Source: Octopus vulgaris (taxonomy: Eukaryota). Taken from it: a stretch of DNA of 64,000 nucleotides. Both the position numbers and the translations under genes were made by a program. The stretch is taken from positions 97,340,001 to 97,404,000 of the forward strand of contig OX597818.1 of the NCBI GenBank assembly GCA_951406725.2, read 5' to 3'. Below, piece after piece: positions 11,001-59,263 of this stretch (position 1 is the stretch's first letter; every line of letters begins with the position of its first letter). The notes under the pieces were generated by a model that did no database searches, was not told the DNA's origin, and worked only from the letters and a program-made list of their open reading frames with translations.

Positions 11001-11735
11001 TTTCTGTATATTAATTCACATGAATGAGATGTCAACAGTGTTAATTACCCAAGTACATTTTTGATGATGTTGTTCTGTAATGAGTGATTAATTATTTGTT
11101 AAACTTTTCTCACACACCTGGTTGGTATTTCATAAGACTCCAGTTTATTTTCAACTTTTGAGATCTTGTTCTACAGAGATCTATATTTTTAACTGATTAT
11201 TTTTACTTATTTTGGTTTTCAAATGCAATTACCTAAAATTGGCTCATTAGTTGATTGATTAACTAATAAGTTAAGGGATATCAGTTGTTCAGTTGTTTTT
11301 GTAGTATCACATATATTAGTTACAAGTCTTTTTTTAAAATGCCTGGTAAAAGATTCAATGATGTTAAAGTTTGGCTTTTAGTAGACTTCAGTGATGAATT
11401 AAAATATTACAAATCAGTAATTTTTTTTAAAGACAGAACAAGAGAATGCATTCGAAACACTGTCATGTTTCTCTTACATTATATTCAGTGACTACCAATT
11501 ATAGTGTATGTTATCAGATATGATTATAAGAACTTAGAAGTATTGATGGAGTTAGGACTATTAATATTTTAAACTATGAAAAATAAGTAACTTTTACGGA
11601 AAACCATAAAAAATAAAATAAAAATGATTTGAACATAGTTGTGGCTTTCATAACATATGCATGCACACATACACACACACACACATTCATCAGTTTTAAA
11701 ATGTGTCAAATTTGATTTTCTTTATTTTAGAAGCC

Positions 11736-11973
11736 ATGTCAGCTGAAACCCCCCAACGTGCTGTTTCTAATGGTGCACCGGACAATGAGGAGGACACATT
11801 TGAGAAGGATTTGAATGAAATGCTTCAGGACGCTCCAAGTCTAAACGATAGTTGTTCAACTGTTCAGAGTGGCAGCCCACGGAAGATCGCTACGGCTGCT
11901 GCAGCACCTCCTACCACCTTTAATTCCAACCCTGCAGATTCTTCACACACTCGACCATACACTGGGCCACCAG
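11736..11973 (+). CDS. ARFIP: Arfaptin, first coding exon (disordered N-terminus MSAETPQRAV...TGPP)
   Basis: Acceptor ttttctttattttag|A at 11730/11731, Kozak-like GCCATGT at 11733-11739, donor CAG|GTGAG after 11973. It ends in phase 1, which matches the phase-1 acceptor of the AH-domain exon at 54286 (G|CC = Ala). Confidence 0.8.
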
Positions 11974-12554
11974 GTGAGGATGCTTCTTTCTCTCTATTTC
12001 TCATATATGTACCTGGCCGAAGAAAATCAAAACTATTTTTGGACAGGATTTGGATAGATTGCAAATGGTTTTGAGGCCTCTTTCTTCAAATATCCCTATC
12101 TTTCAAAATATGCTGAAACATTTTGTTGTTCAGATCATATGCTGAAAAATTTTATGATTTAAAAAAAATATTTGTTATGTGTGTGTATGCATGCGCACAT
12201 GTTGTTGAGCCCAAGGTCAGCCCTGATTGAGTAGACCTATGGCCAAGGGCTCATGCTATAAGCATCCTTATTTTTTTAGAGACTTGTGCTTCTTTTTAAA
12301 GGTAGCAGTGTATGATTTTATAAAAATTTGCCTACTATTTTTAGCAGTTGAATGACTATGGAGAGAAGCTCTCTCATTGGTTTGTATGTGTGAGGTTGTT
12401 TGTTGTTCATGTATGTTTTGCTAACAACTTTCATTTTGAACCTAACATATCATTTTAAAGTGTATTTCAATAGGGAAGGAATTGATTGCATTTATTAATA
12501 TCAAGTAATGTCTCTTTTCAATATACATTTAGTTCTATATTTAAGAGATGAGGA

Positions 12555-13422
12555 ATTATTTACATTTGACGGATATTTGTCCTCACCTTGTTTGTTGTTA
12601 ACATGACGTTTCTGCTGATTACCCTCCAGCCTTCATCAGCTGTCTTGGGGAAATTTCAAATCTAGGTTCTTATTCCTAAGGTATTTTTTGATGTTATTAT
12701 TATTATTCAGGTCACTATCGAACTCAGAATCTTGGGGTTAGTAGCCTGTGCTCTAAATCACTATGCCACATGCCCGTAGGCAATTATGGAGTTAATTTTA
12801 GGGATTATAAATCTAATATTTTCCTATCCTTCCTTAATACCGGTTCCCATATGCTACTCATATCTGCACTCGGTCTGCTTAGAAGGTTGTTGTGCCCTAG
12901 CATATGTGTTGCTTCTTTTAATTTTCATATTTTCCGGTGGTGTTCTCTGTCTATTATTTTAATTTCATCCCTCAGGGGAAGGTGGTCTCCATTTTTCCAT
13001 TCATTATCAGTTATACCTGATTTATCAATATCTCATGTCACAGCTTTGCAATGTTCGTCTACCCTTATTTTGAGGGGGCAGCATGTTTCACCTTTGATAA
13101 CCTACCACAGCTGCATGGGACGGAGTACGTGTAGTCTTTGGTCATATTCTCTTCTATTGGTCGTTTTACTCGAAGGAGATATTTGCAAAGTGTTGTATTG
13201 CTTTTGAATACTGTCCTGATGTCATATGGACTGCATATCTTTTGTATCTTTTCAGTGAGGCCTTTCACATAGAGTAGACAGACTGTGGAGAGTTTATTGG
13301 TTTCATCCTCTCTTTTCTTCATAATTGGAGTGGATAGTATGTTTTTGGGGTAGTTGTGTTTGTAGAAATGTTGTGCTAACAACAAACAAGACTAGGACAA
13401 ATATCCATCAAATGTAAATAAT
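12555..13422 (-). mobile_element. Penelope-like retroelement remnant with GIY-YIG fragment, inverted terminal repeats and hammerhead-like motif
   Basis: ORF 13065-13385(-) LLYVKGLTEKIQKICSPYDIRTVFKSNTTL...YSVPCSCGR matches the Penelope linker/GIY-YIG start (LPYV.G.SE.I...VY.IPC.CG). Ends 12555-12603 and about 13374-13422 are inverted copies. CTGATGA...GAAACGTC lies on the minus strand at 12639-12605. Confidence 0.8.
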
Positions 13423-13959
13423 GTAAATATTGTAATATACATTTCTTATACAAATGAAGCTGTTTTAATTTAGAGCTGTTAAGGAGAACATATAAGTGGG
13501 TTCACTGGCTGAATCTCACCAGCAATTGCTTTAATTGCTTGATTAAAAGGATTTTAACAAGTGACAGGCTGGATTAAAGGACTGCTAATATAATATGGTG
13601 ATTAGTGGGTGATTATAAAGGAGCAGTTAGGAGATCAGCTATAAAACACTGCCTTAGAAAAACCTGTTCAACAATGATGATGGTGATAATGGCATTTACT
13701 TTATTTAATGTGGTTATTTTGTATGATGTTGATAGGTACTTTTTTCTCTTGATATGCATTCATATATACAGAGAGAGGCAGTGAGGAAGAGAAAGAAAGA
13801 TAGAGGGAGTGTAGGTATGTCTGTGTGGCTAAGAAGTTCGTTTTGCAACCTTATGGTGCCAAGTTCATTCCCACTACATGGCATCATGGTCAAGTGTTTT
13901 CTACTATAGTCTTGCATGAATGGAATTTGGGAGACAAAAACTGTTCAGAAGCCTGTTGC

Positions 13960-14009
<50 letters not shown>

Positions 14010-14953
14010 TGGTCAATGAACTTCATTCTTTCAAGGCAGTACTCCAGCACAATGTGGTGCCCCAGCAAGGCTGCAGTCTGATTACTGAAACAGATAAAAG
14101 ATATATATATTTTTAATAGGAAAAGGTTAACAAGAACTTTGAAATTGTTGCTTGCTTGCTATCACCAGACACTATCAACCTTTTCCTTGTAAAAATTATT
14201 TAATATATACTTCACTAAATAGTACTGAATAAACCTTCACTTTAATGCTAACTTGTTTTTATATATAGCTTTGTATAAAAATATACAGTCCATTGCAGGG
14301 TTGCCCATTTACAAATGAGAGTAGACCAGAGCAATGTGAAATTAAGTGCTTTGCTCGAGAATACTATGCACTACTGGTTCAGAAATCAAGACCACAATTT
14401 TGTGATCATGAGTGCAACAGTATAACAGAAAATAGCTGCCATATATACTGAGAGCAAACCTGGTACCATCTAACTGCATAATGAATTTCTTAACCACATC
14501 CTTATATATGTACTTGTCTATACCATATAGCTATGCCTCCACTTTTTACACTTAAGTGAAGCTATTCTGTCTGATCTGTTGAATGTTCTGAGCAGTAAAT
14601 GTAAAGTTGTCATTGTATATGAATATTGAACAAAATATATATTTCCAAGTCATACTTGTTTGATGACTGACTTGATCTGCAGTCATATGATAAAAGTTGA
14701 TTGTATCTGGGAAGGGCCATGGATAGCTTTAAAGTATACATGCCACATTCACCTTTGTTTGATTTTGTAATAAATTTGTCAGTAATTAGGTCAAAGATAT
14801 CTGATGAAACTTTTCAACACTTTTTAGTATAGGCAGCAGGTTGGTGGTGTAGTTATGCCATCAAGCAGAATGTTTCATGATACTTGTTCTAACTCTCTGC
14901 ACTCCAAGTTCAAATCCTGATGTGGTCATCTTTGCCTCTCATCTTTCAAAGGT

Positions 14954-15115
14954 GAAAGAGTACAGCAGGGATCACCACCATCCTCTGCCGGAGCCTCGTG
15001 GAGCTTTTAGGTGTTTTCGCTCAATAAACACACACAACGCCCGGTCTGGGAATCGAAACCGCGATCCTCCGACCGCAAGTCCGCTGCCCTAACCACTGGG
15101 CCATTGCGCCTCCAC
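14954..15115 (-). mobile_element. Young tRNA-derived SINE with 32-bp flanking direct repeat
   Basis: Minus strand GTGGAGGCGCAATGGCCCAGTGGTTAGG (A box) ... GGTTTCGATTCCC (B box); CpG-rich. gtggtcatctttgcctctcatctttcaaaggt is duplicated at 14922-14953 and 15116-15147. Confidence 0.8.
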
Positions 15116-16004
15116 GTGGTCATCTTTGCCTCTCATCTTTCAAAGGTTGATAAAAAGGTACCAATCCAAGGTGATAGATAGGCAGAATTATAAAAAGTCT
15201 GACCAACTGCCTTATAATATTTGTTGTCTCTTTGCATTTTGAGTTCAAATCCTGCCCTGGCTGATTCCCCAGCTTAACACTGCCAACAAACACCTTGGGT
15301 GCCTTTAGCAGAGCTCACTTGGTTTCAGGCATTCAGTTCAGGTTTCTAGTTCAAGGATACTTCCCTTCCTCCCACCAGGTTTGGAGACCTTATGGCAAGT
15401 CCTGGGCATTACCTTCTCTCCTGAGCAAAACATAAAAGAAAAAAAAATTGATACAGTACTTTTCACAAAATAGAGCAAAACGTCTGTACATGTATGTGTG
15501 TTTCAAATAGCTATCAGGATTTCTACAAAATATTTTAAGAAGATAATTTTTAACTTGTTTTAAGAGACATTTTTGTATATATTTACATATATTAGTAGCA
15601 AAAAAAAGGTTTCTGGAAAGCTCATATATTCCATGAGTTCAGTGATTATTAATCAACTCTTCAGTGGTGTATTGTGCATACATGTGTACAGGTTCGGAAA
15701 AGTTGGATGTCAGATATGATGGATGCCGCATAATGTGTGTGTGAATTCATGTTCAAGTTTAATTTTAAGTTTTGTTTTTGTTAATGAAAGTGTTTTGGTT
15801 TATGCTCTTTTCCTTATGTGTATGTATTTGTGTAGAGAGCTGTCTCCCTATTTTCTGATCTATCTACAGGTTAATTATACTGCCCCCCCCATCCTTCCTG
15901 CACTCCCACTTATCACCTCCTCTTTACTGCATCATTTCTATTTATTTACCTCCCCACCCATACTGATATTTACTATCAACTATATCTCCAACATGTATGC
16001 ATTG

Positions 16005-16224
16005 TAAGGAGGTGCAGAAAAGTTCCTGGCTTTGTGTAAAATAAAATAAAAGAGGATCAGTTAATTATGATTTTATTTAACATATTCCCCTCTTAGATTC
16101 ACACACTTATTGCAGCAGTCCATCAGTTTTTCTAAGCCCTGTAAAAGAACTCAGAATGTTGGGCCTCCAACCAGGCCTTTCGTGATACCCTTAAAGCCAG
16201 GAACTTTTCAGCTCCTGCTCATGT
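16005..16224. mobile_element. Mariner-type MITE
   Basis: Terminal inverted repeats ggtgcagaaaagttcctggctt and aagccaggaacttttcagctcc, with TA-like flanks. Confidence 0.6.
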
Positions 16225-16803
16225 ATATATACATGCATACACATATATTTATGTATGTGTGTATATAATATGCACGCACACACACACACCTGCTTCAGTA
16301 TGCTGCAAGATAGGGACACTGTTTGAAGAAAATTCCTCAGGAGGATAAGCAAAATAGTCAAACATTTCAAAAGTATTTTAACCTCTCCACCAGGAAACAT
16401 ACAAATAAGCAAGCCTGAAATTTTGGGGGATGGAGTAAGTTGATCATATCAACCCCAGTATGCAGCTGGTACTTATTTCATCAATCTGGGAAAGATGAAA
16501 AGCAGAGTTGGCCTTGGTGGAATTTGAACTTGGAACATAGAGCTGGAAGAAATACCACTTAGCATTTTACCTGACGGGCTAATGATTCTGCAAGCTTGCC
16601 ACCTTCTTAATAATAGTTTCAAATTTTGGTGCAAGGCTAGCAAATCTAGAGGCAGAAGCAGTCAATTATATTGACAAAAACAAGTGTCATGAAACATTCT
16701 GCTTGATGGCATAACTACACCACCAACCTGCTCCCTATACTAAAAAGTCGACCTTGGTAGAATTTGAACTTGGAACATAGAGTTGAGATAAATGCTACAA
16801 AGC

Positions 16804-16865
<62 letters not shown>

Positions 16866-16986
16866 GGGTGTTAGGTGTGGTGTACAGAAATTGAATATTG
16901 AGAAAAAAGTTGTCGGAATTTTGGAAAAAAATAATGAAAAAAATAAAAAGATTCTTTTTTCCAAAATTCTGATGACTTTTTCTCTC

Positions 16987-17027
<41 letters not shown>

Positions 17028-17488
17028 TATAAAGGGCAATTTGTTTCCAGTATTGCACTATGTGAAAATGTGATATGTGTAAAACCTTTGAACAATGCAG
17101 GTGAAGAGTTAATTAAAATATGTAGGGTGATATCAATGAATTACAAGGAATGATATAGCACTACCACATATTGTTTGTTTAATAATCTAATAATATTTCA
17201 GAATAAATCTTTTTCCATGAAAGGAACAAAGTAATCAAATATTCTGATGTACTTATTATAGGTTAACAGTCTTAGACTTAGACGGATTGGTGATATCAAC
17301 AACTCTTATAGGCTCTTTGATGATATACAGAAGCAAGCTGGTTGATTGGTAGAATTCTTAGATCAATGGACATTTTGCTATGTGCCAAGTATTCTTGCTC
17401 TTATTGTTCTGAGTTCTGCTCATAATGAGGTCAACTTGACCTTTCACCTCTCTCTGGTTGATGTAAATATTCTTTTAAAAAACTTTCT

Positions 17489-17554
17489 TTTAATTTTTCC
17501 AAAATTTAATTTTTCCAAAATTTAATTTTTCCAAAATTTAATTTTTCCAAAATT
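17489..17554. repeat. Tandem 16-mer (tttaatttttccaaaa) x about 4
   Basis: Directly visible. Confidence 0.85.
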
Positions 17555-17642
17555 TACAGTTGAAAGTCTCAATGACTTGAAACCAGTACTGAAATGTTTT
17601 TTATAAAATTATTTTAACATTTTCTACCTTGACTTTTTTTCC

Positions 17643-17682
<40 letters not shown>

Positions 17683-19258
17683 TTCTTTGAAATGAATACA
17701 CCGAAATGGCTACACTGGACTACCATCTTGAGAAATGATGTATTTGATAAATATCATTTCAGACTTTTTCATCATCATCATCATCTTTTAGCGTCCGTTT
17801 TCCATGCTAGCATGGGTTTTGTTTTGTAAATATATTTTATGACAGTTAATTGAATAGTTGAGTACATTTTTTACTATTCTCTTGTGTGTAATGAAATATT
17901 TTAAAAATAGGATAATGCCAATCTTTTCATATCTGGAGCACATACCATTGAAAGCCTTTGACTTCCTATCATTTTATGAACCACCTGCACAGCAAAATGT
18001 TCTCTGACTTCCACATATGCTTTTGAAAGGGATGTCTTTACAGGTTATGGAAACAGCTGTTTCATATAATACGTTTGAATGTTATTGCTAGAAGTGAATA
18101 TTAATTTTCATTAAAATCACTCCCTCTGCTATCAATAGTGCCAACAGCTGATACAGTCACTACACTTTGTCTAATTTATAGGAATATCAGTAGGTATTCT
18201 AATGTTGTGAGGCACTCTCTACATAGTTTGCAAAGCATATTGGTAAATAAATGAATGGTACATGCAACCTATTTATAATAAGTTCTCAAAGTGGATGAGC
18301 GGGATCACTGCCAGAGCAGCTGTCTGGCTTCCATGCCAGTGGGCACGTAAAAAACACCACCTGAGTGTGATCGTTACCAGCGTTGCCTTATTGGCACTTG
18401 AACAAAACATTTGAGCAAGGTCATTGCCAGTGCCGCTGGACTGACTCCTGTGCAGGTGGCACGTAAAAAACACCATTTCGAGCTTGGCCGTTGCCAGTAC
18501 CGCCAGACTGGCCCTCATGCAGGTGGCACGTAAAAGCACCCACTACACTCTTGGAGTGGTTGGCTTTAGGAAAGGCATCCAGCTCTAGAAACTCTGCCAG
18601 ATCAGATTGGAACCTGGAGCAGCCATCTGGTTTGCCAGTCCTCAGTCAAATCGTTCAACCCATGCTAGCATGGAAAGCGGACATTAAACGATGATGATGA
18701 TGTTGTTGACATTTGGTGTTTCAGGCAAGACCTTTTGTTAGAGGAAATGGCACTAAGTACTTGGGCATAGTAGAAACTATAGGGAAATAGCATTATTTCC
18801 CCTTTATCAAATGGTGTTTGGTGTATCGAATAGATTCAAGCTATAGTACAGAGTTATTAAAATGAAGTGACAGTCATTGTTATCTGTAGGAAAAAGGAGG
18901 TTGAAATTGTCATGAATTATGTGCTAAGAGTAGGTAGTTAGTACATAATTTGCAGAGGAAGAAGTAGTTGGTATCCTGTCAAGCGTTTGTCAGTAGAAGA
19001 CTGTCAGCATGACAAAGGTGTATTGACTGATTAAATTTATAAGGTCATTTACTTGGTATCTTTGGAGCTTAAGATTTATCAGAAAAGTATTTTGTTCTTG
19101 AATTTAGTATATTATACATAAAGTATACAATAAAAAAAGTAATAGAAAAGGTCCAAGGCATATGCATGGCTGTGTGGTTAAGAAGCTTGTTTTGCAACCA
19201 TATGGGTTCAGTCCCTACTTTGTAACTGAATTTAGTTGGCAGAAACTGTGTGGAAGTC

Positions 19259-19303
<45 letters not shown>

Positions 19304-19310
19304 CACACAC

Positions 19311-19945
19311 ACAATTTGTGCCAGGTAGGATCACAACTGATGCTATGTACCTGGTTAGTCAACTGCAGGAGAAGTATTTAGCCAAAAATAAGTGTCTGTA
19401 CTTGGCTTTTGTTGACATGAGGAAAACCTTTGACAGGGTCCCCTGCTCTCTTATCTGGTGGTGAATGCAGAAGCTAGATAGATGAGTGATTAGTGAGAGC
19501 TGTGCAAGCCATGTGCAGGAATGCTGCCAGTAAGGTGAAGTTGGCAACAAGCATAGCAATGAATTCAGTGTACAGGTAGGAGTTCACTAAGGTCCAGTTC
19601 TCAGCCCCCTCTTGTTTACCTTAGTCCTCCAGGCCTTAACTGAGGATTTCAAGACCGGCTGCCCTTGTGAGCTCCTCTATGCTGATGACCTTGATTTTAT
19701 AGCTGAATCATTATCTGACCTAGAGAAGAAATTTCAGGTGTGAAAGCAAGGCCTGAAATCAAAGGGTCTTCAAGTTCATTTAGCAAAAACCAAAGTCCTA
19801 GTAAGTAGGAAAACTGACAAGTCATAAGTCCCTTCAGGGAGATGGCCCTGCTCAGTATGTATGAAGGGTGTTGGTAGAAACTCCATATGTTGTATCCAGT
19901 GCAAGCTTTGGACACAAGAGGTGTAGCAGTATCACAGGAAGGTTA
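19311..19945 (+). mobile_element. RTE-type LINE reverse-transcriptase fragment (pseudogenised)
   Basis: FVPGRITTDAMYLVSQLQEKYLAKNKCLYLAFVDMRKTFDRVP, then LLYADDL (YADD at 19678-19689), with stops and frameshifts. Confidence 0.85.
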
Positions 19946-19949
19946 GCCC

Positions 19950-20575
19950 AGCTTTGGTATTGCAAGAAGAGTGGTGAGTGTTTTTCTCAACTGTGCCCCA
20001 CACATAGTAATCCATGGGATTACAATTAGAAGGATTAGGAGGTCAGAAATTTGGGCTGGTGAAGTCATAGAATTTCTCCAACAACTACTTCTATTTCTGG
20101 GGGTATGACAAGGGGCCAAATCCTGCTACCACACATATAGCCTTCCAGCAGTAATCCTCTCCAGCCTGGGTTTGACGACAGTCTCCAGCAGCTTCACATA
20201 GTTGTCTAAATTGAGCCTAAGGCCATGTTCGAAGATATGAGGATAAATTCTGGCATGCAGACATAGTTAGAATACATTCTGTGTCCCTTTCTGCCAGCAT
20301 GTCACATCTTACATCCTTTAGTGTTCACAGAGCATTCAGCAACAGTCATGATGTTTGACACTCAGTGCGAATCCTCATGATTCAGGTCATTCTTTTCTAA
20401 TATTTGGTTGGCTGGTAAGGTGATGAAACACTTGTAGTATTATGCAATAAAGCCTGTTTACTCATTCCAATATCTCCTGTTTACACATTTTTTATATATA
20501 CTCTACAGATATTAATGGATTTTTGGATGAACCTTCAATTTTCACTGTGAAACTGCATCTGGTATCCAGTACCTG
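19950..20575 (-). mobile_element. Tc1-like transposase remnant
   Basis: Minus-strand motifs YVW*QDLAPCHT (about 20101-20140) and F*PPNPSNCNPMDYYVWG (about 19995-20048) match QQD.AP.H and WP..SPD.NP..W of Tc1/mariner DDE transposases. Confidence 0.7.
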
Positions 20576-20747
20576 TACATAAGCTTTATAAAGCAAAATA
20601 CGAGTTCATTCTCAAATTGAATTCATATATATATATATAAATATATATTTAATTAGAGGATTTGTTAACCTCCTGAAGGGATGGTTGCATCCAAGGAAAT
20701 ACTGGTTCAATACCTTGTATTTCGGGTGAATGAAATTCCCTTAAAAC

Positions 20748-21210
20748 AATAGGTATATATTAAGTATGTACTTTATATCCATTTAAAAGAAAAGAAAATG
20801 GAGATAAGGAAGTTAATTATTGTTTATTATTAACAAATTGGTCATCTTCGCTTCTGACAGCCATTTCAATTAATACTCAATAATCTAATTACAAATTTAT
20901 ACATTAAATTTACATTTATATGACATGAGTATAATTTCATCAGAGGAAAAAAAAAGATGTACCTTTGGATGTTATATGTGGACCTATCAATTCATTTCAG
21001 CATTTTTTTTTTCACTGATGAAATTATACTCATGTCACATAAATGTAAATTCAATGTACAAATTTGTAATCAAATTATTGAATATTAATTGAAATGGCTG
21101 TAAGAAGCGAAGATGACCAATTTGTTAATAGTAAACAATTATTAACTTCCTTATCTCCATTTTCTTTTCTTTTAAATGGATATAAAGTACATACTTAATA
21201 TATACCTATT
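20748..21210. repeat. Long fold-back inverted repeat (about 210-bp arms, about 40-nt spacer)
   Basis: 20748-20959 is a near reverse complement of 21001-21210. The surrounding element is bounded by (TA)n at about 20626-20648 and 21229-21261. Confidence 0.9.
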
Positions 21211-21226
21211 ATTTTCTTCTTTTAAA

Positions 21227-21265
<39 letters not shown>

Positions 21266-21348
21266 ATAGTAGGGAATATAATTCCAAACTTACAGGGAAA
21301 AATTCAATTTAGCAATTCTAAATCAAATTTCACAATATATAATATATG

Positions 21349-21505
21349 TATATAATTAAGAGAAATAACCTCTATTAAGCAATTCAATAGTGAAAGACAT
21401 TATCTATATTATATAGAAACAATTTAAATATACTATAATAAATATTATTCAAAAAATCATTCACTATTGAATTGCTTAATAGAGGTTATTTCTCTTAATT
21501 ATATA
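21349..21505. repeat. Inverted repeat (about 46-bp arms)
   Basis: tatataattaagagaaataacctctattaagcaattcaatagtgaa pairs with ttcactattgaattgcttaatagaggttatttctcttaattatata. Confidence 0.85.
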
Positions 21506-21774
21506 TATATATAAAATTTGTGTGTGTTGCATCTGTGTTTGTCTCCCCACTGCTTGATAACTGGTGCTGGTTTGTTATATCCCTATAATTTAGTAGTTGA
21601 AAGAGAGAGCAATAGAAATAAGTATCAGTCGTAAAAGAATAAGTATTCGATTAAAACCCTTCTAAGTAGTGCCTCAGCGTGGCCTCAGTCTAATGACTGA
21701 AACAAGTAAAATATAAAGATAAAATATCTTGTTAATGGTTTCTTTTTGGTATTTAGTCTTTATTTAAGATAAGA

Positions 21775-22582
21775 TATGCTGTGCTTGAGAAGACCTGGCA
21801 AGCGAAGTAAGACCATAGCCCATGGCCTATGCCAGTGGGTGTAACCAGCCCACTTATGAATACCCCCTCATTCATTGGGCAATAAACTTTGCTTGCGAAG
21901 ATCTATTGAAGCAAGTGAAATCAAAATCAAAATCGCTGACGTGGCTGATGACAGTACTACCTGATTGTGCCAGTGGAATGTTAAAAGCACATCTGAACTT
22001 GGGGTGTAACCGGCCGACTTATGAGTGTCCCTTATTCATTGGACAATGAACTTTACTTGCGAAGACGTATTGAGGCAAGTCTAAGCAAATCAAAATTGCT
22101 GATGTGGCCAATAACAGTACCACCTGATTGGCACTTGTGCTAGTGGAATGTTAAAAGCGCATCTGAGCGTGATCGTTGCCAGGGCCTCAGATTGGTTCCC
22201 ATGCTGGTGACACGTGAAAAGTACCGTTCGAGCACAATCGTTACCAGCGTTGCCTTGCCGGCATGTGTTGGTGGCACGTGAAAAACAACATTTGAGTGTG
22301 GTTGTTGCCAGTGCCACCGGACTGGCTCCTGTGCAGGTAGCATGTAAAAAGCACCTTTTGAGTGTGGTTGTTGCCAGAACCGCCTGACTGGCCATTGTGA
22401 CGGAGGCACGTAAATGCACCCACTACCCTCTTGGAGTGGTTGGCATTAGGAAGGGAATCCAGCTGTAGAAACTTTGCCAGATCAGATTGCGGCTGGTGCA
22501 GCCTCTGGCTCACCAGTCCTCAGTCAAACTGGCCAACCCTTGCCAGCATGGAAAGCAGACGTTAAATGATGATGATGATAAT
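21775..22582 (+). mobile_element. Long copy of an interspersed retroposon family with internal tandem units and (GAT)n tail
   Basis: Shared 3' block gagtggttggcattaggaaggg(c/a)atccagctgtagaaac...gacgttaaatgatgatgat. Other copies at about 18290-18702(+), 29250-29530(+), 56315-56598(-) and 9460-9716(+). Confidence 0.7.
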
Positions 22583-25500
22583 GATTTCATACAATCACTT
22601 TTTCTTCAAAATGTCATTTATTCTTACATCTCTGTTGTATTCAGTGAGCATTTTATTCATTAATTCATTCTTTGGGATGGATTTGAGTGACATTTTGCAT
22701 TCCTAGTTAGATTGTGCAAGATATAAAACAGACAGATGATTTTGTTAAGGATGGATGTATATCATATTCTGCTTCACAGTTATCATTAATTAACATTACC
22801 CTCCTGTTTATGGAAGCCTAATTGGAAAATATACTTTCACTAGCTAAATATATTAGTTTAGTTATTGAGAAAGCAGTTAAATCTTTATTTTTATCAGTGA
22901 CAAGGTATTTTTTTTTATTGCAAGATAGAGTTGTATTCCATTTAGATAATTAAACTCATTGTGTGGTTCTGATTTTATTTAGTGCAGTAAGGTTCTCTAC
23001 CATTATAGCTCTAATATAAAGACTTCTCATTAGTAATGTGTGACTGTTTCTGTTGTGCCATAATCACCTGATGGTTTTTTTTACAAAATGCTATCAAGTT
23101 CATTGCATTTTAAAAGTTTTGCTCGAGGGCCTGATATATATATATACATACATACATACTGACCTGGTGTTAGGTTTATTCATGGAAACATACTGACCTG
23201 GTGTTAGGTTTATTCATGGAAACAGTGAATTAACAGAATCATTACAGTAGCAGACAAAATGCCTTGTGGTATTTATTCTTGAACTTTGCAGTCTGTGTTC
23301 AAATCTTGTGAGATCCACATTCATTCCTTCCAGAGTTGATAAAGCACCAGTCATGTACTGGAGTTGACTCAACTGGTTGCTGATCTCCACCAACATTCAG
23401 TAGGTTGGCATGGTTATGTAGAGCTCATATCTTTGCTTAACTGTGGGGTGCTGATGACAGGTGACGTGACTCACTGGTTATGTATGCTACTGTCACATCA
23501 CCATCTATAAAACCAGAATAATTGAATAACAAGTTCAGATTCAATGTCACAAATTACATCTATATGCTACATTAAAAAATTCTTTTAAAGATTTTGACAT
23601 GCAATGACTCAAACCATGAAGATCCATCTTAGCCTTGATGCTTTAGTAATTTCTCTCTATCGTAATACATAGAGCAAGCTACACACTCTTTGTTTTGGTA
23701 GTCTTATCACTCTGAAGTGTTTTTGTATCCATAATTAATAACTTTGGCTTCATATGAAAACGGAAACTTAAGTGTTAATAAAATTCACAAGAAACAAAAG
23801 TCCAGGAAATTACTGAGTATATATTTTGAGTATATTTACTCTTGGTCCTGTTCTTTTGCTTTGTAGCTTAACAAAGTGTTTGAACGCTATGGTTGGGGTG
23901 AGAATAGTTTAGTTAGTGACATAAGTTGATGAGAGTGTAATTTATGTTTATATGTTTATGCATACATGTGAGGTACATATACCATGTTTGGCTATATAAA
24001 AAGATATAAGCAGAGGTCTATAAGCTGGTAAGATGTTAGTTAATTGGCATAAAACATTGGCACATTCCCATTTACTATCATTAGAAAACTTTCAGAATTT
24101 AAAGCTGTTCCAAATCCACAAATTGCTCCTTTAAATTAACTCTGTTGTGAATAGAGTCTACATTAAAGAAACAAATATAGTTTTAGAATAGCTCCCTTGG
24201 TTTCCTGAGGAAATCTATACTCTCAGCTCTAATCAATTTTCATCATCTGTAATATGAAAGGCTGAATTGGCTCTAGAGTAACCGGAATTACCTTGTAACT
24301 ACTGGTTACAGACACAAAGCTTGTTGTAGTGGCTTGTCTGTTGCTGACTGCTGTTTATATCCAACAGGATTTTTTTCTCTCTTCAGTTTTGGAGTATTAA
24401 TTTATGCTTTAAAACATGAGTGAAATTTAAGGTGACCTACAGCTGCTTTAGACACCTTTCATGTTGTTATTATATGTCATAATATTTGACTTTTGTTATC
24501 TCCTAATATAACTAGGCAATGTGAAGTATCAGCTTTTGTCTACAATAAACATTTATTCTAAAGTAAAAAGTACTTGGTTTTGTAAATATCACTGAACATG
24601 CTGAAACGCATTTAAATATCTTTTTATTCGTTAATATTCTAAGACTGTAATGGATATATTTAAAAGGAAAAAAAAAGGTATGTACATTATAAATCAATAA
24701 TGATTATGAACATGTTTAAACTGAAATTTTTATTAGAAATATATATATGGGTTGATATTACTGTGCAAATATGTTGTGCTGATCAAATGCAGAATGGTTG
24801 TATTGCATTGATATTTTAGAATCGGAAAAAATTTAATATTTTAGGGTTGATAGATTTTCTTTGCATGTAGTGTCATTACCAACAAAACACTTAGTTTAGT
24901 CTTTCTTGGTTTTGGGTTCATTGCCCTCTCTTGTTGACTTTTAATTCCTAAGAAGTGATTAAATTTTGCATGAGTAATATCTTAAGATTATTTAAGTTAG
25001 CAATATCCTTCTTCTTATTTTTGGATTTGTGCTAGGTAGTTTAAAATTAATATTTTCATATTTAATGTTCATAAAATAGAAAAGTTATTAGATTATCTGC
25101 CTGCTTTTTAAACTGTATCATGAGAGAATGTTCTGTGAAAGTTTATTTTCGTTAAGTTTCAACTGAACACTAATTTAAATGTGTTATTATCTGTGGGAAA
25201 CTTTATCTTTTACTATTCTTTTTAATTTAATCTTGAAGACCTGTTTATCACTGTAATTTATGCAAAAATACAGTATATTAGCAGTATAAATAATTGACAC
25301 ATTGGCTGTGTAGTTGAAAAGTCTTCAGTTGATAAAAAAAGGAAGTAGATTTACTACAGTAGAAGGAAGTCATGTTCAAGGAGTATTTCTTTAACAAATA
25401 TCTTATTATAAACAATAAAAGCTTATATAAGAAATAATTATATGCATTCTACTTAAAATTATCGGTTCAAAAGTCTTCATCATTTACAATAATATTTTTA

Positions 25501-26466
25501 TAATAGCTACAGTATTTGATGGCATGAAAGACGCATAAGTATATTACACACCTTATTTGCAGCAACGCATATTTGAAAAAAAAAGAAGATTTTTAATGCA
25601 TTAATGCATGCAAAATCTAAAGCAATTGAGCAGAACATTACAAAAAGTACCTTAGCTAATTTAAAATAAAAATAATTATTAGTATGGAGTTTAAGGTGGC
25701 AAGCTGGCAGAGTTGTTAGCATGTTGACAAAATGCTTAGTGGCATGTCATTTGTCCTTATGTTCTGAGTTTGAATTCTGCTGAGGTTGACTTTGCCTTTC
25801 ATCCTTTCGGTGTTGATAAATTAAGTACCAGTGAAACATTGGGATCGATGTTCAGGCCTTGTGCCTTTAGTAGAAAGGATTATTATTATTATTATCATTA
25901 TTATTGAGTTAGGATTAGTATAAGAGACCATCTGGATTAAAATTAGCCTATAGTAGTGAGCTTATTTGAAGGCCCAACTTAGCATATAAGACCTGGGGTT
26001 GTTTTTTTGAGATTTGTTTTTGAAAAAAAATTGCATCTTATATGCAATCAAATGTGGTAATTATTATTTTAAAAACAATGGAGCATATATGTAAAAAAAG
26101 ATTTACCTATTGGAGAATCAAAAATTGCTGCTGCCTGTTAACGGACTAATTCACTCTTCATATCCTGTCACTGGTGTATACAAGTGGGAAATGGTTGTTA
26201 ACATTTAAAGGCCCAGCCCATTTTTATTGCATTTGAATGTAACAATTCAGTGTTGCAGTCATTGGGAACACTGTTAGTGACTAACAAGTGTTTTGACAGC
26301 TAACAATGGTGAATTCAACTCCTGCTACAAACAAAATATGTAACAGATTGGTGTCATCTAAAGGAGGATAATGGTACAAAATCTTGAATAAATTACTGAA
26401 TAGTATCATATTTGGCAATGGCTATAAATAAAAATAAAAAGATTGTGTGTGTGTGTGTGTGTGTGT

Positions 26467-26696
26467 ATAACTGTCACTAAATGTGACTAGGGTGTTAGAA
26501 ACACCTACATTGCTAGAAATAAGAGCTAAAATGCTCTAACGCTGTAGTCATAAATGTAAACATATACACAAACAGGTCCCTGTTAGTGTATATGTTTACA
26601 TTTATGTATGTTGACTACAGCGTTAGAGGATTTTAGCTCTTATTTCTGGCAATGTAGGTGTTTCTAACACCCTTGTCACATTTAATGATAATTTAT
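26467..26696. repeat. Near-perfect palindrome (about 230 bp, 2-nt loop at 26577-26578)
   Basis: aaatgtgactagggtgttagaaacacctacattgc...aacagg|tc|cctgtt...gcaatgtaggtgtttctaacacccttgtcacattt. Confidence 0.9.
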
Positions 26697-29600
26697 AAGC
26701 AACACAAAAATTTACAAAAGTAAATGGAAGAGCTCTCTCAGGAAGAACATACTATTAATTTTTTATAATAGTATATGCTTTGAATAGTCCATTGTTTGGG
26801 TTAGCTCAGTTTTTGAATAACTTCTTGACTTCCAGTGAAATACTCAATCCAAAGTAAGGAATACTCAATCCGAAACATAGATGGTTCAAATTCATACAAT
26901 TGACCTTCCTGACATATTCATTTCACTATCATGATATATCTACTTCATCTGGTCAAGCCTGCTTGGACATTTTTAACTCACACACAGACATCCATCTCAG
27001 ACCTGCATTAATTGAAGGAAATCTTCAGAGAGGCATGCAGTGTTCCTGGTGATTTGATCTACATATGTATTTTCAAACAACCAGCTTGAGTATAGCTATG
27101 CTTTGGATTCCATAGCAATATGTCACTTGCCAGTGTCTGCTTAATCACAATTAATTGAAGATATCCAACTACAATCAGCATATAATAAACCTGTTCCTCC
27201 CATCATACTTTCGCTTCTCTCACTCTCTTCCCCTAAACTCAGCTTCTTTCAAAATCCTCTCTTCTAATCTCCCTCTTAGAGTAATGAGTATGAGGTCTTT
27301 AATAGTTTTAGTTCATATTTCAAATCTTGTTTGTTAAATTTGTTCTACTCTTATTCTGTTGGCTTTCAAACTGTCCGTTGTCTCATCTGTATGACGATTT
27401 TGTACTTATAATTTTCATTTGTGGAAACACAGCATTTTTCTCTTACTTGTTTCAGTCATTGGACTGCAACTATGCTAGGGTACCACCTTGAAGGGTTTAG
27501 TCAAAGAAATCAACCCCAGCATTTTTTTTTTCATGTTTGGCACTTACTCTCTGTTTCTTTTGTCAAGAAGTAGTGGGTGAATAAACACAAACACACATAT
27601 ATATACAGGCAGTGGTGGGACACACACACACTCACACACAATTGTTTCTTTGTCTACCAAATCCACTCATAAGGCCTTGGTTTACCTGAGGTTATAGTAG
27701 AAGACACTTGGCCAAAGTGCCTTACAGTGGGACTGAATCTGATACCATGTGGTTGGGAAGCAAACTTCTTACCACGCAGTCACACCTGTACCTATTTGTG
27801 GAAAAATTTAGTATTTTTAGTTGAAAGTACAGCTTATATACAAACTCTCCTAAGTCTGGATTCTTTATTGGCTTTGCTGATGAGAATTCTATTAATCAGT
27901 TGCTTAATCAACTGAACTACCTCTTAAATAAACATATAAATGATTGTTTCCACATGTATATATTTAGTGTAATTCTCATTCAATGACAAGGCTGAACCTT
28001 TGAAGTACATGTACAGTCCATTTGGCAGGCTTCCACATATTTTCTGCCTACACCCAGTTTCACTCACAAAGCTTAAATCAACCCTAATCTATGATAAAAG
28101 ACACTTGCCCAAGATACTGCACACTGGATCAAACTTGGGACTTCATAATTGCAAATCTCTTAACCACCTGGCCATACCTTCTTTCATATTTGAGGTAGTA
28201 ATGCCATAGTAATATCTAAATATTTTAGTTTTTGAAGTTAAGTGAACAGTACAAAAATTTTGAAGTCATGTTAAATGATTACATCAAGATTTATATTGAA
28301 TATTAAGTGTAATTACATAAATCTCTAGTTGCTACCTTTATCTTTTATCCTTTATTTTGATAACTTTTGTTGGTAGGATTGTTATTGATGGCCAAATTAT
28401 TTATGTGTTCGTGAAAGAGAACTAAACAATGCCAGAACAAACTTAAAAATAACTAGCTTTAGCTGTCTTAGTAGTACATTGTTGTGTGACTAAAACAAAA
28501 AAAAAATGCTTATTCATCTTTTAACTTTTTATCTTTTACTTGTTTCAGTTGTTGGACTGAAGGGCTTTAATCAAACAAATCAACCTGCTTGTACTTATTT
28601 ATTTTTAAAGTTTGTTGCTTATTTTATTGGTTGCTTTTGCAGAATTACTAAGCTAGCAGGATAAAAACAAATGAAAACCAGTTGTCAAGCTCAGATATAT
28701 TTTTTCATGCTCAGAATTGATGAAGCATGGAATAAACTAACTGCATCAGTTGTTAGCCATCAGGTCACTGCATCCTTCGAAACTTCCATGCTTCCTGAAA
28801 TTCGCCATCAGTATGCCTGATGCCCCCCCCCACCGTTTTTTTTTTTTTGGGTAAACTTATTCACTATTCACTTCCTGTGCACATTCTGTGTACTGTTCAT
28901 GCAGTTTTAGTTACTTTTTCTGATGAGCTGTAGTGCACCTGAGCACTGTATACAATAAATTCATTAATATTACTAATAAAGTGGGTGCCCGAGGGGGACA
29001 TAGACACACACATACATACACACATAATGAGCTTCCACATGATCTCTGTGTGCTAGATTTACTCACAAGGCATTGGTTGGCCTTGGCTATATATAGGAGA
29101 AGGCATTTGTCCAAGTTGCCTTGCAGTGTGATTGAACCTAAAACCACTTGGTTACAAAGTAAGCTTCTTAACCACTCAGCCATGCTTGCTGCACCTTAGT
29201 TAAAAGTCTTAAAATTTTATTCCCTCAATTTTATATATATATGTATATATGGTCATTGCCAGTGCCGCCTGACTGGCCCCTATGCTGGTTGTATGTAAAA
29301 AGCACAATTCAAGCGTGGTCGATGCCAGTGCCACCTGACGTTCCTGCATGCTAGTGGCACGTAAAAAGCACCCACTATACTCTTGGAGTGGTTGGCATTA
29401 GGAAGGGTATCCAGCTGTTGAAGCTTTGCCAGATCAGATTGGAACCTGGTGCAGCCTCTTGGCTTGCCAGTCCTCAGTCAAACCATCTAACCCATGCCAG
29501 CATGGAAAGTGGACGTTAAATGATGATGATTATATATATATATGTATATCTCATAGACACTGATGATTTGATTATTTTTATTGCTTGGACTTGTAGAACT

Positions 29601-30584
29601 TGTAAGCAACCAGTTTTTTTTTTTCAACCAAATGTTCCCCTTTCCCTCTGATTTTCACTCCACTTGCACTCTTTGCTTACTTACCCTGTCCAGTCCTCTG
29701 TACCACTCCACTTACATTCACCTCCTTGTATCTTGAGGGTATGCCCTAGCACATCTTTACCACCATCTTTCTCTCTCTCTCTGATTGGGATAGCCATATA
29801 TTTCCTCTACAGCAAAACATCTGTTTCTGTCCTACTGTCATAGTTTAAATTTCTCATCACTTGGCACAAAACCACCTCCCTCAATACCACTCACCCTCTC
29901 TTTGTCTTGGAAGTTATCTGCAGTGCAGTTTGGTGCCATGGAAAAAAAAACAAAAACATCCATACGTTCTGTAAAGTGGTTGGTGTTAGGAAGGGCATCC
30001 AGCTGTATAAACCGTGTCAAAGCTGACTGTAGAGCTTGTTGCAGTTCTCTGGCTTATTTGCTCCTATCAAACTGTCCAACCAATTCCAGCATGGAAAATG
30101 GCTGTTAAATGATAATGATGCTAATTATTGCCTAAGAAGGTATACATCATTTACATCTGTCACAAAATAAATATATTCTGAAGATTACCTCCAAACAATA
30201 AAACGTTTGTTTTTTTTTGTTTCTCATTTTACTTTATTCTTCTTAATGTATGGGTTTTAGAATCCAAGAAGTTTATTAATTGCCAAGTTGTATAGTTTCT
30301 TCATGAAAAGCTGTTTGAGCACTTAGAAGGGTGTAACCAATAGGAAACTTTAGGATATCACATTGCCAAGACCTTGACTTGCAGACAATGCTGTCAACAT
30401 TTGAAATGCTGAAATTCAAACCAGATTTGTTTGGTATCCTTCCTCAATTTATAAGCTATTGATATCATCAAAATAGGCCACTGCTTTGCTGTAGATATTT
30501 AAATAATTAGCAAAGTGGTTTATTTAAGACAGTTGTTTTTTATGAGCTTCAGTGTGTATGTGTGTTTGAAAAATGTCCCTTGAT

Positions 30585-31172
30585 ACTCTCTCTCTCTCTC
30601 ACATTCACTCTCTCTCTCTCTCTCACATTCATTCACTCTCTCTCTCTCTCTCACATTCACTCTCTCTCTCACATTCACTCTCTCTCTCACATTCACTCTC
30701 TCTCACATATTCACTCTCTCTCACATATTCACTCTCTCACATTCACTCTCTCTCATGTTCACTCTCTCCCGTTCACTCTCTCTCTCTCACGTTCACTCTC
30801 TCTCTCTCACGTTCATTCTCTCTCTCTCTCACGTTCATTCTCTCTCTCTCTCACGTTCACTCTCTCTCTCTTACGTTCACGTTCATTCTCTCTCTCTCTC
30901 ACGTTCATTCTCTCTCTCTCACGTTCCTCTCTCTCTCTCGTTCACTCTCTCTCTTACGTTCACTCTCTCTCTCTCACGTTCACTCTCTCTCTCGCGTTCA
31001 CTCTCTCTCTCTCTCTCACATTCACTCTCTCTCTCTCTCTCTCTCTCACATTCTCTCTCTCTCTCTCTCTCACATTCGCTCTCTCTCTCTCTCTCACATT
31101 CACTCTCTCTCTCTCACATTCACTCTCTCTCTCTCACTTTCACTCTCTCTCTCATTCACTCTCTCTCTCTCT
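30585..31172. repeat. Compound (CT)n minisatellite, unit about CACATTCA(CT)n or CACGTTCA(CT)n
   Basis: Directly visible tandem units. They explain the three overlapping low-complexity ORFs at 30562-31345. Confidence 0.95.
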
Positions 31173-31845
31173 GTCGTTCATTTTCAAACTCATTGAGTCA
31201 TACTCATTCACTTGCATACTTATTTACTCCCACAGCCACATATTTACTCCCACATTTAATATCAGATGTTTTAAGTAAAATAGTTGAAGTATGGTATACT
31301 GATTCATTACAAATGATAAGAACCTCATTCTGTCATGTAAGATAATTAGTTCAAACTGCTGTGATGTTCCCAATCAAAGTTATTGTTTTGACAAGAAATT
31401 TCTTAATATTGAACATGCAAAACTTTTATATCTTTGAAATCTAAACTGTGTTTAAAATATCAATTAAAATGCTAAATTGTCCCTTTCTCTACTGTTCACT
31501 TGTTTTATATAGCTTAAGATCTGTTTATGATGATACAGCTTAGGTTTTCCTATCTTATATTTGTTTAGATATATTGTTTCCACCTGAGTTTCATTTCATA
31601 ATAATCTGTTTCATGTGAAATTCCAGTTAGGTGTAATGATTCCTTGTTTGTACACTAATGACCTAGACCTTGTAATAACAGTGCTATTTTTACTTATATT
31701 ATAGAGTTCTTTCCTTCTACATTACATTCTGTTTTGTTTTTTTCCCTATATTCTTGGTATACTTTGTGTCGTTGCAAAGATTAACTTTGTGTATGTATTG
31801 CTTTCATGATTGCTGACCTTTTTGTTTTATCTCTTCTGCATTCAG

Positions 31846-31854
31846 AACAAGAAG
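31846..31854 (+). CDS. ARFIP: Candidate 9-nt cassette microexon of arfaptin (AACAAGAAG; adds E-Q-E)
   Basis: Branch-like tgctgac (31811-31817), polypyrimidine tract, TGC at 31837-31839, acceptor ttcag, consensus donor AAG|GTAAGT. Phase 1 to 1, no stop. Confidence 0.6.
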
Positions 31855-33838
31855 GTAAGTTTGGCTTATGAAATCAGCCCTATCACAACATCTACTTCTC
31901 TTCTCCTGTTTCATAAGGAAGTGCCTTTATTGCCAGTTTTTTTAATATTTAGCTTATTTTGACCATCATGGTCAAGGCCATATTGAAGCCTCACACACAC
32001 ACACACGAGCAGACATGGCTGTATGGTTTAGAGGTTTGCTTTTTAATGACAAGGTTTAGGGGGTTTTGAGTTCAGTCCCACTACACATCACCTTGGGCAA
32101 GTTTTTCTACTTGTTAGCAAATTTGGTAAATGGAAGCTGAAAGATGTTCACAATGTACGTGTGTGTGTGTGTGTGTGTGTATGTCTGCATCTGTTTACAT
32201 TTATGCTCAATGAAAGTTGCAAGCTGCAAGCAGTGTTGTCATTGTTACTTGTCAACAAATTGTCCACTTACTTTGCACCTTAGAGATTCCTTACTTGACA
32301 GAAAAGATAATGGTTAGTGATGGGAAGGGCATCTAGCAGTAAAACAATGCCTCACTGATTTATTCATCTAACCCATGGAGAAGTGGACATAAAATGAACT
32401 AATACATGTACACACACACACTAGATTTAAATAAATAACCAACTGAAAATAGAGGAGTAAAATGTAATTGTAGGTGTCGGTCTTGGAAATCTTTATTTCT
32501 TTTTTTCTGCAGTTCTTATCTGAAAGAAGAAAAAAACCGATTCTGCTGCTAAATCTGAGAGATTTATGTTTCTTGAACTCATATTTCAATATGTTGGGTT
32601 GCTGTTAGAGTTGAATAGTTGTTCTGAAGTTAATAGAGTATCGAATAGTAAATTAGAAGTGAAGGGTACTACTACTGTTCCATCAAGGGCAGAGGATAAT
32701 GGAAGAGAACTGGGAAGATAGTTTAATTTGATCATTATAGTTTGAAAGGCATCATAATTCTTCCTTTATTTATTATTGTTGTAACGTTTCAACTTTACTG
32801 AAACTTAGTGTTGTTTCTCTCTTTGGTGTATTTGTTTTCAAAATTGACAACATGTAAATATCTAAATTTTTTTCTCTTATATTCTGTTGCCATTTGTTTC
32901 TCATTATTGATGTTGTCTCTATATTAAATACTCAGAGTTTTTAGTATGAATCACTCTTTGAGTTGACTTCTATGCATGTTTGAAATCATATTGTCTAAAG
33001 TGTTCTCTCACACTCAAATTCCTACTCACACTCTTACTTTCTCTCTCAGCTATATGCACTCACTCAACCACATGTATTCTCTCATTGGATATTATGCACT
33101 TAATTTTTTACAGTCAATTACAGTTATTCTCTATCATTTTTATTCACTTGCATATTTTTTTTTCACTCATATACATACATACATACTAATTTTCATTCAT
33201 GTGTGTACACATACACTCCTTCTTGTGCACATACACTCCTTTCCAATCAAATGTGTGCACACATCTTTACCCTCACTCACATTCATGTACGCTCTCACAT
33301 TCATCACTTACTCACATTTGCTTCTGTTTCCATCTTATTTGCTTTTGTTCATGCACGAACTAATTTTTGTTCATTGATGCACACACACACACATTTTATT
33401 TCATTCACTCATGCAAACATATACCTTCCTTTATTCTCATGTATACAGACACATACACACACACATTTGTTTCATTTGCTATCTCTCTCTCTCTCTCTCT
33501 CTCTGTCTCTGTCTCTGTCTCTCTGTCTCTCTGTCTCTCTCTCTCACACACATTGACTCTTATGTGCACAGTTTCTTGCTCTCTTTGACAATTATTTATC
33601 ATCATCTGTAAATACTTTGGGCATTTTACGAAAACATATTTCCTAAAATATCATCTCCCCTCTTGATTTTGAGATTTACCTCCCTTCTATAAACTCTTTT
33701 TTTTGTTTTTTGTCAAAATTTTTCAAAATTTTAAATATTTCTTGTCTCTTTCTCTACTACTGCTTTTATATCATATTGACCATTTCTTTCTTTACATTAG
33801 CTTTTTGCTTTTTAATTTCTGAATTATAATTTTCAATA

Positions 33839-40198: not shown

Positions 40199-40297
40199 CT
40201 ACCCCTTCAGAGAAGTCTAAGAAAACTTCAAACTCAAATGGGATGACTCGAACAATATCAAGCAAACTGTATCCCACAGGTTGCTTTTCTTTGGCAG
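40199..40297 (+). CDS. ARFIP: Candidate cassette exon of arfaptin (ATPSEKSKKTSNSNGMTRTISSKLYPT[GCFSLA])
   Basis: Acceptor tgctttttttctggttag|C. Donors CAG|GTTGCT after 40279 (81 nt) and CAG|GTTAGT after 40297 (99 nt). Both are phase 1 to 1 and stop-free; the exon is a GC-richer island in very AT-rich intron. Confidence 0.5.
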
Positions 40298-54285: not shown

Positions 54286-54696
54286 CCACAAGTAATATTC
54301 CACTGTCGAGTCCTCAGAGCAATGGAGATTTCGTACCTAAAGGCAGTGTCACTCAGACTGCTGTATCCAAGATTGACACAATTCGCTCATGGAGCTTGAA
54401 TACATACAAATGTACTCGTCAACTTTTATCTGAAAAATTTGGCAAGGGTTCGCGAACTGTAGATCTGGAGTTGGAAACTCAGATCGAAGCTTTGCGTGAA
54501 ACACAACGCAAATATTGCAACATTTTGCGTTTGGCACGTTCTCTAACCAATCATTTCTATTATGTGGTGCAAACTCAAAAAGCCCTTGGAGAATCTTTCT
54601 CTGAGTTAGCTGCAAAATCTCCAGATCTCCAGGAGGAATTTACTTACAATTCTGAAACACAGAGAACACTAAGTAGAAATGGTGAAGTACTATTGG
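54286..54696 (+). CDS. ARFIP: Arfaptin coding exon: amphipathic helix and start of AH/BAR domain
   Basis: Translation [45 protein letters not shown]...[23 protein letters not shown] is recognisably arfaptin. Acceptor tttcag|C and donor G|GTAAGT, phase 1 to 1. Confidence 0.95.
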
Positions 54697-54883: not shown

Positions 54884-54977
54884 GTGCCATGAATTTTTTT
54901 ACTTCTTCTGTGAACACACTATGCAATAAAACTATGGAAGACACTCTACTTACAATAAAACAGTATGAAAATGCTAG
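54884..54977 (+). CDS. ARFIP: Arfaptin coding exon ([31 protein letters not shown])
   Basis: Acceptor ctcttctttctag|G and donor AG|GTTAGT, phase 1 to 2. Conserved arfaptin AH-domain sequence. Confidence 0.95.
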
Positions 54978-56035: not shown

Positions 56036-56210
56036 ACTGGAATATGATGCATATAGAAATGACCTTGAGTTTGCTCAAATGGGACCACGAGATAGCAATT
56101 CTATACCCAAAGTTGAAGATGCCAAGACCAAGTTTGAAGAACATAAACAAAAATATGAATCTCTACGTGCTGATGTAGCCATCAAGCTAAATTTTTTGGA
56201 AGAAAATAAG
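56036..56210 (+). CDS. ARFIP: Arfaptin coding exon (LEYDAYRNDLEFAQMGPRD...YESLRADVAIKLNFLEENK)
   Basis: Acceptor ttttctttttccag|A and donor AAG|GTAAGA, phase 2 to 0. Translated by hand because the ORF track shows a different frame. Contains arfaptin motifs R.EYDAYR.DLE and LR.DV.IKL.FLEENK. Confidence 0.95.
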
Positions 56211-58378: not shown

Positions 58379-59263
58379 CAAATACTCCTGACTATTTTTA
58401 TGTTTTGCAACTGAGTCCTAAGTCTGAAACTGAAGCCAAACTAAGCTGTTACTGTTTATTTTGCTATGTGTATTGCTTAGTGATAATAGATATCCTGATG
58501 AAAGTTATTGAATTCTTATCATTATGACTGTACCTAGTGAAGCAGATCAGCAATAGGACATATTCCATCACATACAATGTATTGCTTGAACTTGCTCTTT
58601 ACAGAGGCAGTGTATTTTTTTGTTTAGTTTATGAAGCCACTGCATATTATTTCACATATTTTGTCTTTATAAATAAAATATTGTCCTTTTTACAAACACT
58701 ATTGCATAAAACATTCAAGTTTATCCTGCTTCAGTCCCCATAGTAAGCCTCTCTCATACAAATTGTTGCTTTACTATCCATGTGATGGCCATGGCTCCTT
58801 GGCTTCTCATGGAGTCACAGAGGTGCAATCATGACATATGGTGTATCCTGGGCATTTTAAGATCTGTTGGAGCCCATTCCTCGCTAGGTCTGACCACAGT
58901 CAATTTCTTCCAGGAAGAGAGAGATAAACAGAATGAAAGAGAGAGAGAAAAGGAGAGAATTTACCCCATACAGGTCTTAGTTCCTCCTGCTCCTAACGGA
59001 ACATTGGGTGATGAGCTGCCTCCACTGAGTGCAATCTATTACAGCTGCTTTTGCATCATTCTAGGTCTATTGCTGTTCCTGTAAGTCCTCATGGACCTGT
59101 TTTTGGGTGGTCTTCCTCTCCCTTGTTTACTACCAGCTGATGTCCTTGTCAACCCCAGTACAGGACTGGTACTTTATTTATTGATCCCCAAAAGGGTGAA
59201 AGGCATAGTTGACCGTGACAGGGTTTCATCTCAGAAAACAAACAGCTGGAATGAATACCTTAA

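Follow-up and report, generated by a model that had tools for sequence, protein, structure and literature searches.

A nine-nucleotide optional exon in octopus arfaptin with a probable neural, eMIC-type acceptor

The window, a stretch of 64,000 nucleotides from Octopus vulgaris (contig OX597818.1, positions 97,340,001 to 97,404,000), contains most of one arfaptin gene on the + strand, and the O. vulgaris genome has one Arfaptin match. The final coding exon lies just beyond the window end (L007, about 209-361). The exons within the window are the following.

11731..11973, + strand: exon A, upstream coding exon with the ATG at 11736, its last codons reading R-P-Y-T-G-P-P; donor 11973 used in 4/4 runs
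40199..40297, + strand: exon B, alternative, 99 nt (33 aa); in protein records P0003, P0125 and P0126, not in P0001, P0121 and P0124
54286..54696, + strand: exon C, encoding the amphipathic-helix region and the beginning of the Arfaptin (AH/BAR) domain, PF06456; acceptor used in 4/4 runs
54884..54977, + strand: exon D, coding
56036..56210, + strand: exon E, coding

Exon C matches PF06456 with an E-value of 1.4e-28, which assigns the gene to the Arfaptin family, and its product is 100% identical to Octopus proteins. The translation of exons A, C, D and E together with a microexon between A and C equals the first 309 residues of XP_029636031.1, and the same chain with exon B placed after the microexon equals the first 342 residues of XP_036358834.1; these two O. 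sinensis proteins match the window translation over all the exons that it contains.

The microexon is flanked by introns of 20 kb and 8-22 kb. Microexons range from 3 to 27 nt, and the length of 9 nt, bounded by canonical AG/GT sites, falls within this size. Its elements are arranged as follows.

31780..31843, + strand: AG exclusion zone, 64 nt (measured)
31813..31817, + strand: branch-point-like motif CTGAC, with a putative branch A at 31816
31818..31836, + strand: polypyrimidine tract containing TCTC
31837..31839, + strand: TGC (UGC) at -9, candidate eMIC/Srrm234 enhancer
31844..31845, + strand: acceptor AG of the microexon
31846..31854, + strand: cassette microexon, 9 nt, AACAAGAAG, inserting E-Q-E; insert present in protein records P0002, P0124 and P0126
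31855..31860, + strand: consensus donor GTAAGT

A sequence-only reading of this DNA had recognized the CTGAC, the tract, the TGC, the 9-nt exon and the GTAAGT, and all of them were found where it had placed them; additional TGCs occur at -35 and -47 of the acceptor. Its claim that E-Q-E is inserted without a frameshift is borne out, because exon A ends in phase 1, the frame reads G-AA CAA GAA G-CC, which gives E-Q-E before either exon B or exon C, and all four exon combinations translate openly with 0 stops. It had further taken both flanking exons to be constitutive and phase-matched. The exons at 11731-11973, 40199-40297 and 54286-54696 do have a common phase, but the 40199 exon is itself optional and cannot be called constitutive. 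Over the four acceptors measured, the AG-free zone amounts to 64 nt at the microexon, 35 nt at exon A, 49 nt at exon B and 28 nt at exon C, and the combination of CTGAC with a TGC adjoining the AG is confined to the microexon acceptor. The exon B acceptor has a TGC at -18 in addition to its 49-nt AG-free zone, and single features are therefore not specific.

The 42.3-kb intron between exons A and C contains a single copy of the 9-mer. A loose pattern (YAG, 3-27 nt, GTRAG, a tract of at least 70% pyrimidine and a TGC) finds a single match in that intron, which is the microexon site. When the local sequence was shuffled 300 times with dinucleotides preserved, 29% of the shuffles also matched (mean 0.35), and the loose motif by itself is therefore weak. 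A strict pattern, the criteria of which were taken from the microexon site after the fact, matched 0/300 shuffles. The motif is suggestive of an exon and does not amount to proof. We take the decisive independent support to be the database proteins that carry exactly E-Q-E at the same junction.

E-Q-E was found in three of the ten proteins of three octopod clusters, in identical form and at the same junction: XP_029636031.1 (O. sinensis X3), XP_036358834.1 (O. sinensis X1) and XP_014787141.1 (O. bimaculoides X2, from an older source only). The tripeptide constitutes the sole difference within the pairs P0121/P0124, P0003/P0126 and P0001/P0002, and the isoforms include forms of 356 aa and 359 aa. 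From the way in which RefSeq models are built, models with so short an exon would imply junction support in RNA, although the entries, annotated as arfaptin-2 isoforms, provide the sequence alone, with neither tissue, regulator nor function. The microexon that the sequence-only reading had claimed for arfaptin is thus real. It is also optional, since contigs crossing the exon A donor run straight into exon C and skip it in 4/4 runs (four studies). These are assembled, tissue-unlabelled contigs, from which rare forms are lost, and none of those examined at the exon A donor in the 4 runs shows an inclusion junction. The cassette behavior is accordingly documented by inclusion in 5 of 191 proteins, which are protein records and not junction reads, and by skipping in all four runs. 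The expectation that standard annotation would likely miss the exon fails for the three public models named above, which include E-Q-E; some credit comes from the only O. vulgaris record seen, CAI9723248.1, which does not have the insert, and from the older source of the O. bimaculoides model. The Argonauta records seen do not have the insert either. No account of this exon was found in the literature searched on octopus or cephalopod microexons, splicing and arfaptin/Arfip. The available main text of bioRxiv 10.64898/2026.09.05.749416 has 0 mentions of arfaptin, its supplements possibly listing the exon, and the one supplementary file of PMC8797185 that was available gave 0 matches for Arfip, arfaptin, CG17184 and octopus.

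A closely related insert, D-Q-E, is located at the same junction in two of the eight members of the cluster that contains the arfaptin of Acanthosepion (Sepia) pharaonis, and is the sole difference between P0129 and P0131. The carriers are unnamed assembled proteins that we call cuttlefish-like from their cluster membership, and they account for 3/80 contig counts of the cluster, a figure that is not an inclusion level. The pattern PP[DE]QEA[TN] is matched by 5 of the 191 proteins compared, all cephalopod or cephalopod-like. A search with the N-terminal region added no further protein, its 6 matches all being known from the other comparisons. No three-residue insert was found in the gastropod and bivalve proteins compared (15 of the 32 members of the oyster cluster; best 120 of 593 matches), and no orthologous insert was present in the non-cephalopod proteins among the 191; neither Nautilus nor a named squid is represented among the matches listed. 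The 361-aa forms of oyster were considered as microexon carriers and rejected, the difference being a C-terminal extension. Because D-Q-E occupies the same junction in the cuttlefish-like proteins, the microexon likely predates the octopus-cuttlefish split, and a coleoid origin is likely from these comparisons.

The regulator presumed by the neural reading is encoded in the same genome. SRRM_C (PF15230) gives a match of 32.6 bits, above the cut-off, in O. vulgaris, at the following position.

G000:C25:37317492-37341960 (L001, L002, L004): Srrm234 eMIC-coding region, two exons with a 24-kb intron; the first exon ends at 37317628, the second starts at 37341781

The second eMIC exon, 24,152 nt downstream, encodes ARKRPVPYHRP followed by an RS tail and a stop, and the eMIC domain of octopus Srrm234 is intact and open throughout; in flies the domain belongs to a neural alternative last exon. 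According to PMC8797185, with which PMC10551640 agrees, eMIC exons are marked by a strong branch point, a tract rich in UCUC, a UGC close to the 3' splice site and an extended AG-free zone, and eMIC acts through U2AF and SF1. The octopus acceptor displays the UGC, the long AG exclusion zone, the UCUC tract and a strong branch motif, although its branch sequence is CUGAC where PMC8797185 gives CUAAY. The correspondence of the long AG zone, the near UGC, the UCUC and a CURAY-type branch with the features given there makes an eMIC-type acceptor likely. The octopus exon further shares with eMIC (Srrm234/SRRM3/4) microexons a very short, frame-preserving length, skipping by default and a membrane-trafficking host, the BAR protein Endophilin B being among the four positions shared by fly and mouse. 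Against the fit count the CUGAC branch as well as the strong donor and the long introns on either side (20 kb and 8-22 kb), as the eMIC exons of flies have weak donors and lie between short introns; in donor and introns the octopus exon resembles the mammalian pattern more than that of flies. In contrast to known eMIC microexons, the octopus exon has no non-cephalopod ortholog in the proteins compared, and its regulation is predicted.

Based on these features, we consider it probable that the eMIC-bearing form of Srrm234 acts on the acceptor with its UGC and thereby brings the 9-nt optional exon, which adds E-Q-E, into the transcript in neurons. Recognition by default would fail because of the small size of the exon and the weakness of its acceptor, and neuronal eMIC would switch the exon on by promoting the assembly of SF1 and U2AF, the mechanism given in PMC8797185. 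The same source describes the non-vertebrate eMIC as confined to neurons by the processing of Srrm234, and states that in flies the acceptor signature is seldom found outside eMIC exons.

That signature, along with the 9-nt length, is the main argument against a different regulator. A genuine, conserved cassette microexon could instead follow a muscle, gland or developmental programme (Rbfox, Ptbp, Elav-type or QKI) and not the neural eMIC. UGC is a short, common motif, the optional exons taken up at the junction are unrelated to one another (33 aa in octopus and 11 aa in the cuttlefish-like cluster), and amphioxus and vertebrates carry other inserts in the same linker, all of which such a programme would accommodate; yet the full eMIC-target acceptor, a signature largely unique to fly eMIC exons according to PMC8797185, leaves this a possible but unlikely explanation. 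The skipping of the microexon in the contigs of all four runs, the 3/80 contig counts for D-Q-E and the high variability of the linker among animals would also suit low-level, near-neutral splicing of an exon tolerated in a disordered linker, without regulated function. We regard this as improbable, as octopods and decapodiform-like transcripts, separated by a deep split, agree in the length, the position and the x-Q-E sequence, and the three D-Q-E contigs indicate that in some samples the inclusion form can be the one assembled. The frequency of the loose pattern in the shuffles and the lack of the insert in the O. vulgaris and Argonauta records seen are, finally, what a chance pseudo-exon or an annotation artefact would produce, but the insert recurs in independent models from two Octopus species and, as D-Q-E, in proteins assembled de novo, and alternative donors or acceptors at exons A, B or C cannot give E-Q-E, so that we attach hardly any weight to it. 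Neuronal inclusion through Srrm234 is the reading followed below.

The insert splits a conserved stretch, R-x-x-[T/S]-x-P-P / A-T-S-N-[I/V]-P-L-S, directly after its first half. This half is present in 21 of the top 40 matches, the pattern having been written after viewing them, and isoforms without it exist in several molluscs. The 14-3-3/basophilic kinase consensus is R-S-x-pT-x-P, and the stretch before the insert resembles a 14-3-3 or basophilic kinase site. The motif threonine is kept in Octopus and Argonauta and is replaced by alanine in the cuttlefish-like cluster (RSYAGPP); because the cuttlefish-like proteins lack it, the phospho-motif reading is weakened and the partner uncertain. 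A short linear motif may nevertheless be tuned by splicing: the acidic E-Q-E, rather than altering the BAR fold, could adjust the partners of arfaptin at the neuronal Golgi, a step we hold with less confidence than the inclusion itself. E-Q-E begins at residue 80, 38 residues ahead of Trp118. Judged by eye from its sequence context, Trp118 is the counterpart of Trp99 in the amphipathic helix of ARFIP2, a residue required there for binding PI4P (PMC6504893). Exon A has no Pfam match and the linker is variable, and the insert is therefore likely to leave the BAR fold alone.

Vertebrate ARFIP1/ARFIP2 and amphioxus arfaptin, like the octopus gene, have optional exons in the linker that separates the conserved N-terminal motif from the amphipathic helix. 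Those seen comprise about 14-36 aa of sequence unrelated to the octopus E-Q-E, the likeness being one of linker region. The microexon is likely a new example of a well-described class, that of eMIC microexons, which was already in the databases. Neural microexon programmes are described for vertebrates and flies, and no worked-out cephalopod neural microexon was found in the literature searched. Flies need arfaptin for synapse growth (PMC3667727), and arfaptin is linked to the formation of mammalian secretory granules (PMC6504893). We offer only tentatively the larger reading, in which the exon would have originated in coleoids as an eMIC target, would have persisted since octopus and cuttlefish diverged, and would give neurons their own arfaptin and tune the formation of Golgi carriers or dense-core granules. 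If true, the exon would exemplify in detail a neural microexon programme that cephalopods built on their own, in parallel to flies and vertebrates. The preprint bioRxiv 10.64898/2026.09.05.749416, a survey of splicing by tissue across 20 bilaterians, O. bimaculoides among them, presents recurrent, lineage-specific neural exons as the rule, and a coleoid-only example is therefore to be expected on that account. The microexon would carry a known rule over to a further lineage and leave the rule itself unchanged, and a tripeptide exon in both coleoid branches would constitute a clean and cheap test case for cephalopod eMIC activity.

Further features of the gene were noted. Exon B is optional and known only from Octopus records, and cuttlefish-like proteins have an unrelated optional insert of 11 aa at the junction used by the microexon, so the intron between exons A and C repeatedly gains exons; a scan of this intron for AG/GT-bounded 33-mers found no octopus copy of the 11-aa exon (best score 4). 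A second candidate for the loose pattern, a 16-nt stretch at 59065-59080 in the last intron, bounded by AG and GTAAGT with TGCs upstream, was rejected, as it shifts the frame and is absent from all protein models seen; it probably arose by chance. Exon A has a tandem NAGNAG acceptor (TAG AAG) at 11728-11733, of which the first AG is used in the contigs of 3 runs; P0122, an O. vulgaris model, looks as though it used the second. The choice touches the 5' UTR or an N-terminal extension. Upstream of 11731, two differing 5' sequences (runs X1 and X8 versus X3) join one shared stretch, which suggests alternative first exons. Neither the window nor the 20 kb before it contained these sequences or the 5' UTR exon seen as loose contig ends. 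At window position 11831, the window has C and the contigs of 4/4 runs have T, representing either an allele of the assembled individual or an assembly difference. A long (CT)n/CA-rich tandem repeat at 30511-31345, about 500 nt upstream of the microexon and pyrimidine-rich on the transcribed strand, might speculatively serve as a Ptbp-type element. The intron is dense in high-copy interspersed repeats over 12500-30500, where contig depth is very high, and ORF fragments near 13065-13391, 19108-19464 and 59678-59986 look, by eye, like decayed pieces of retroelements or DNA transposons.
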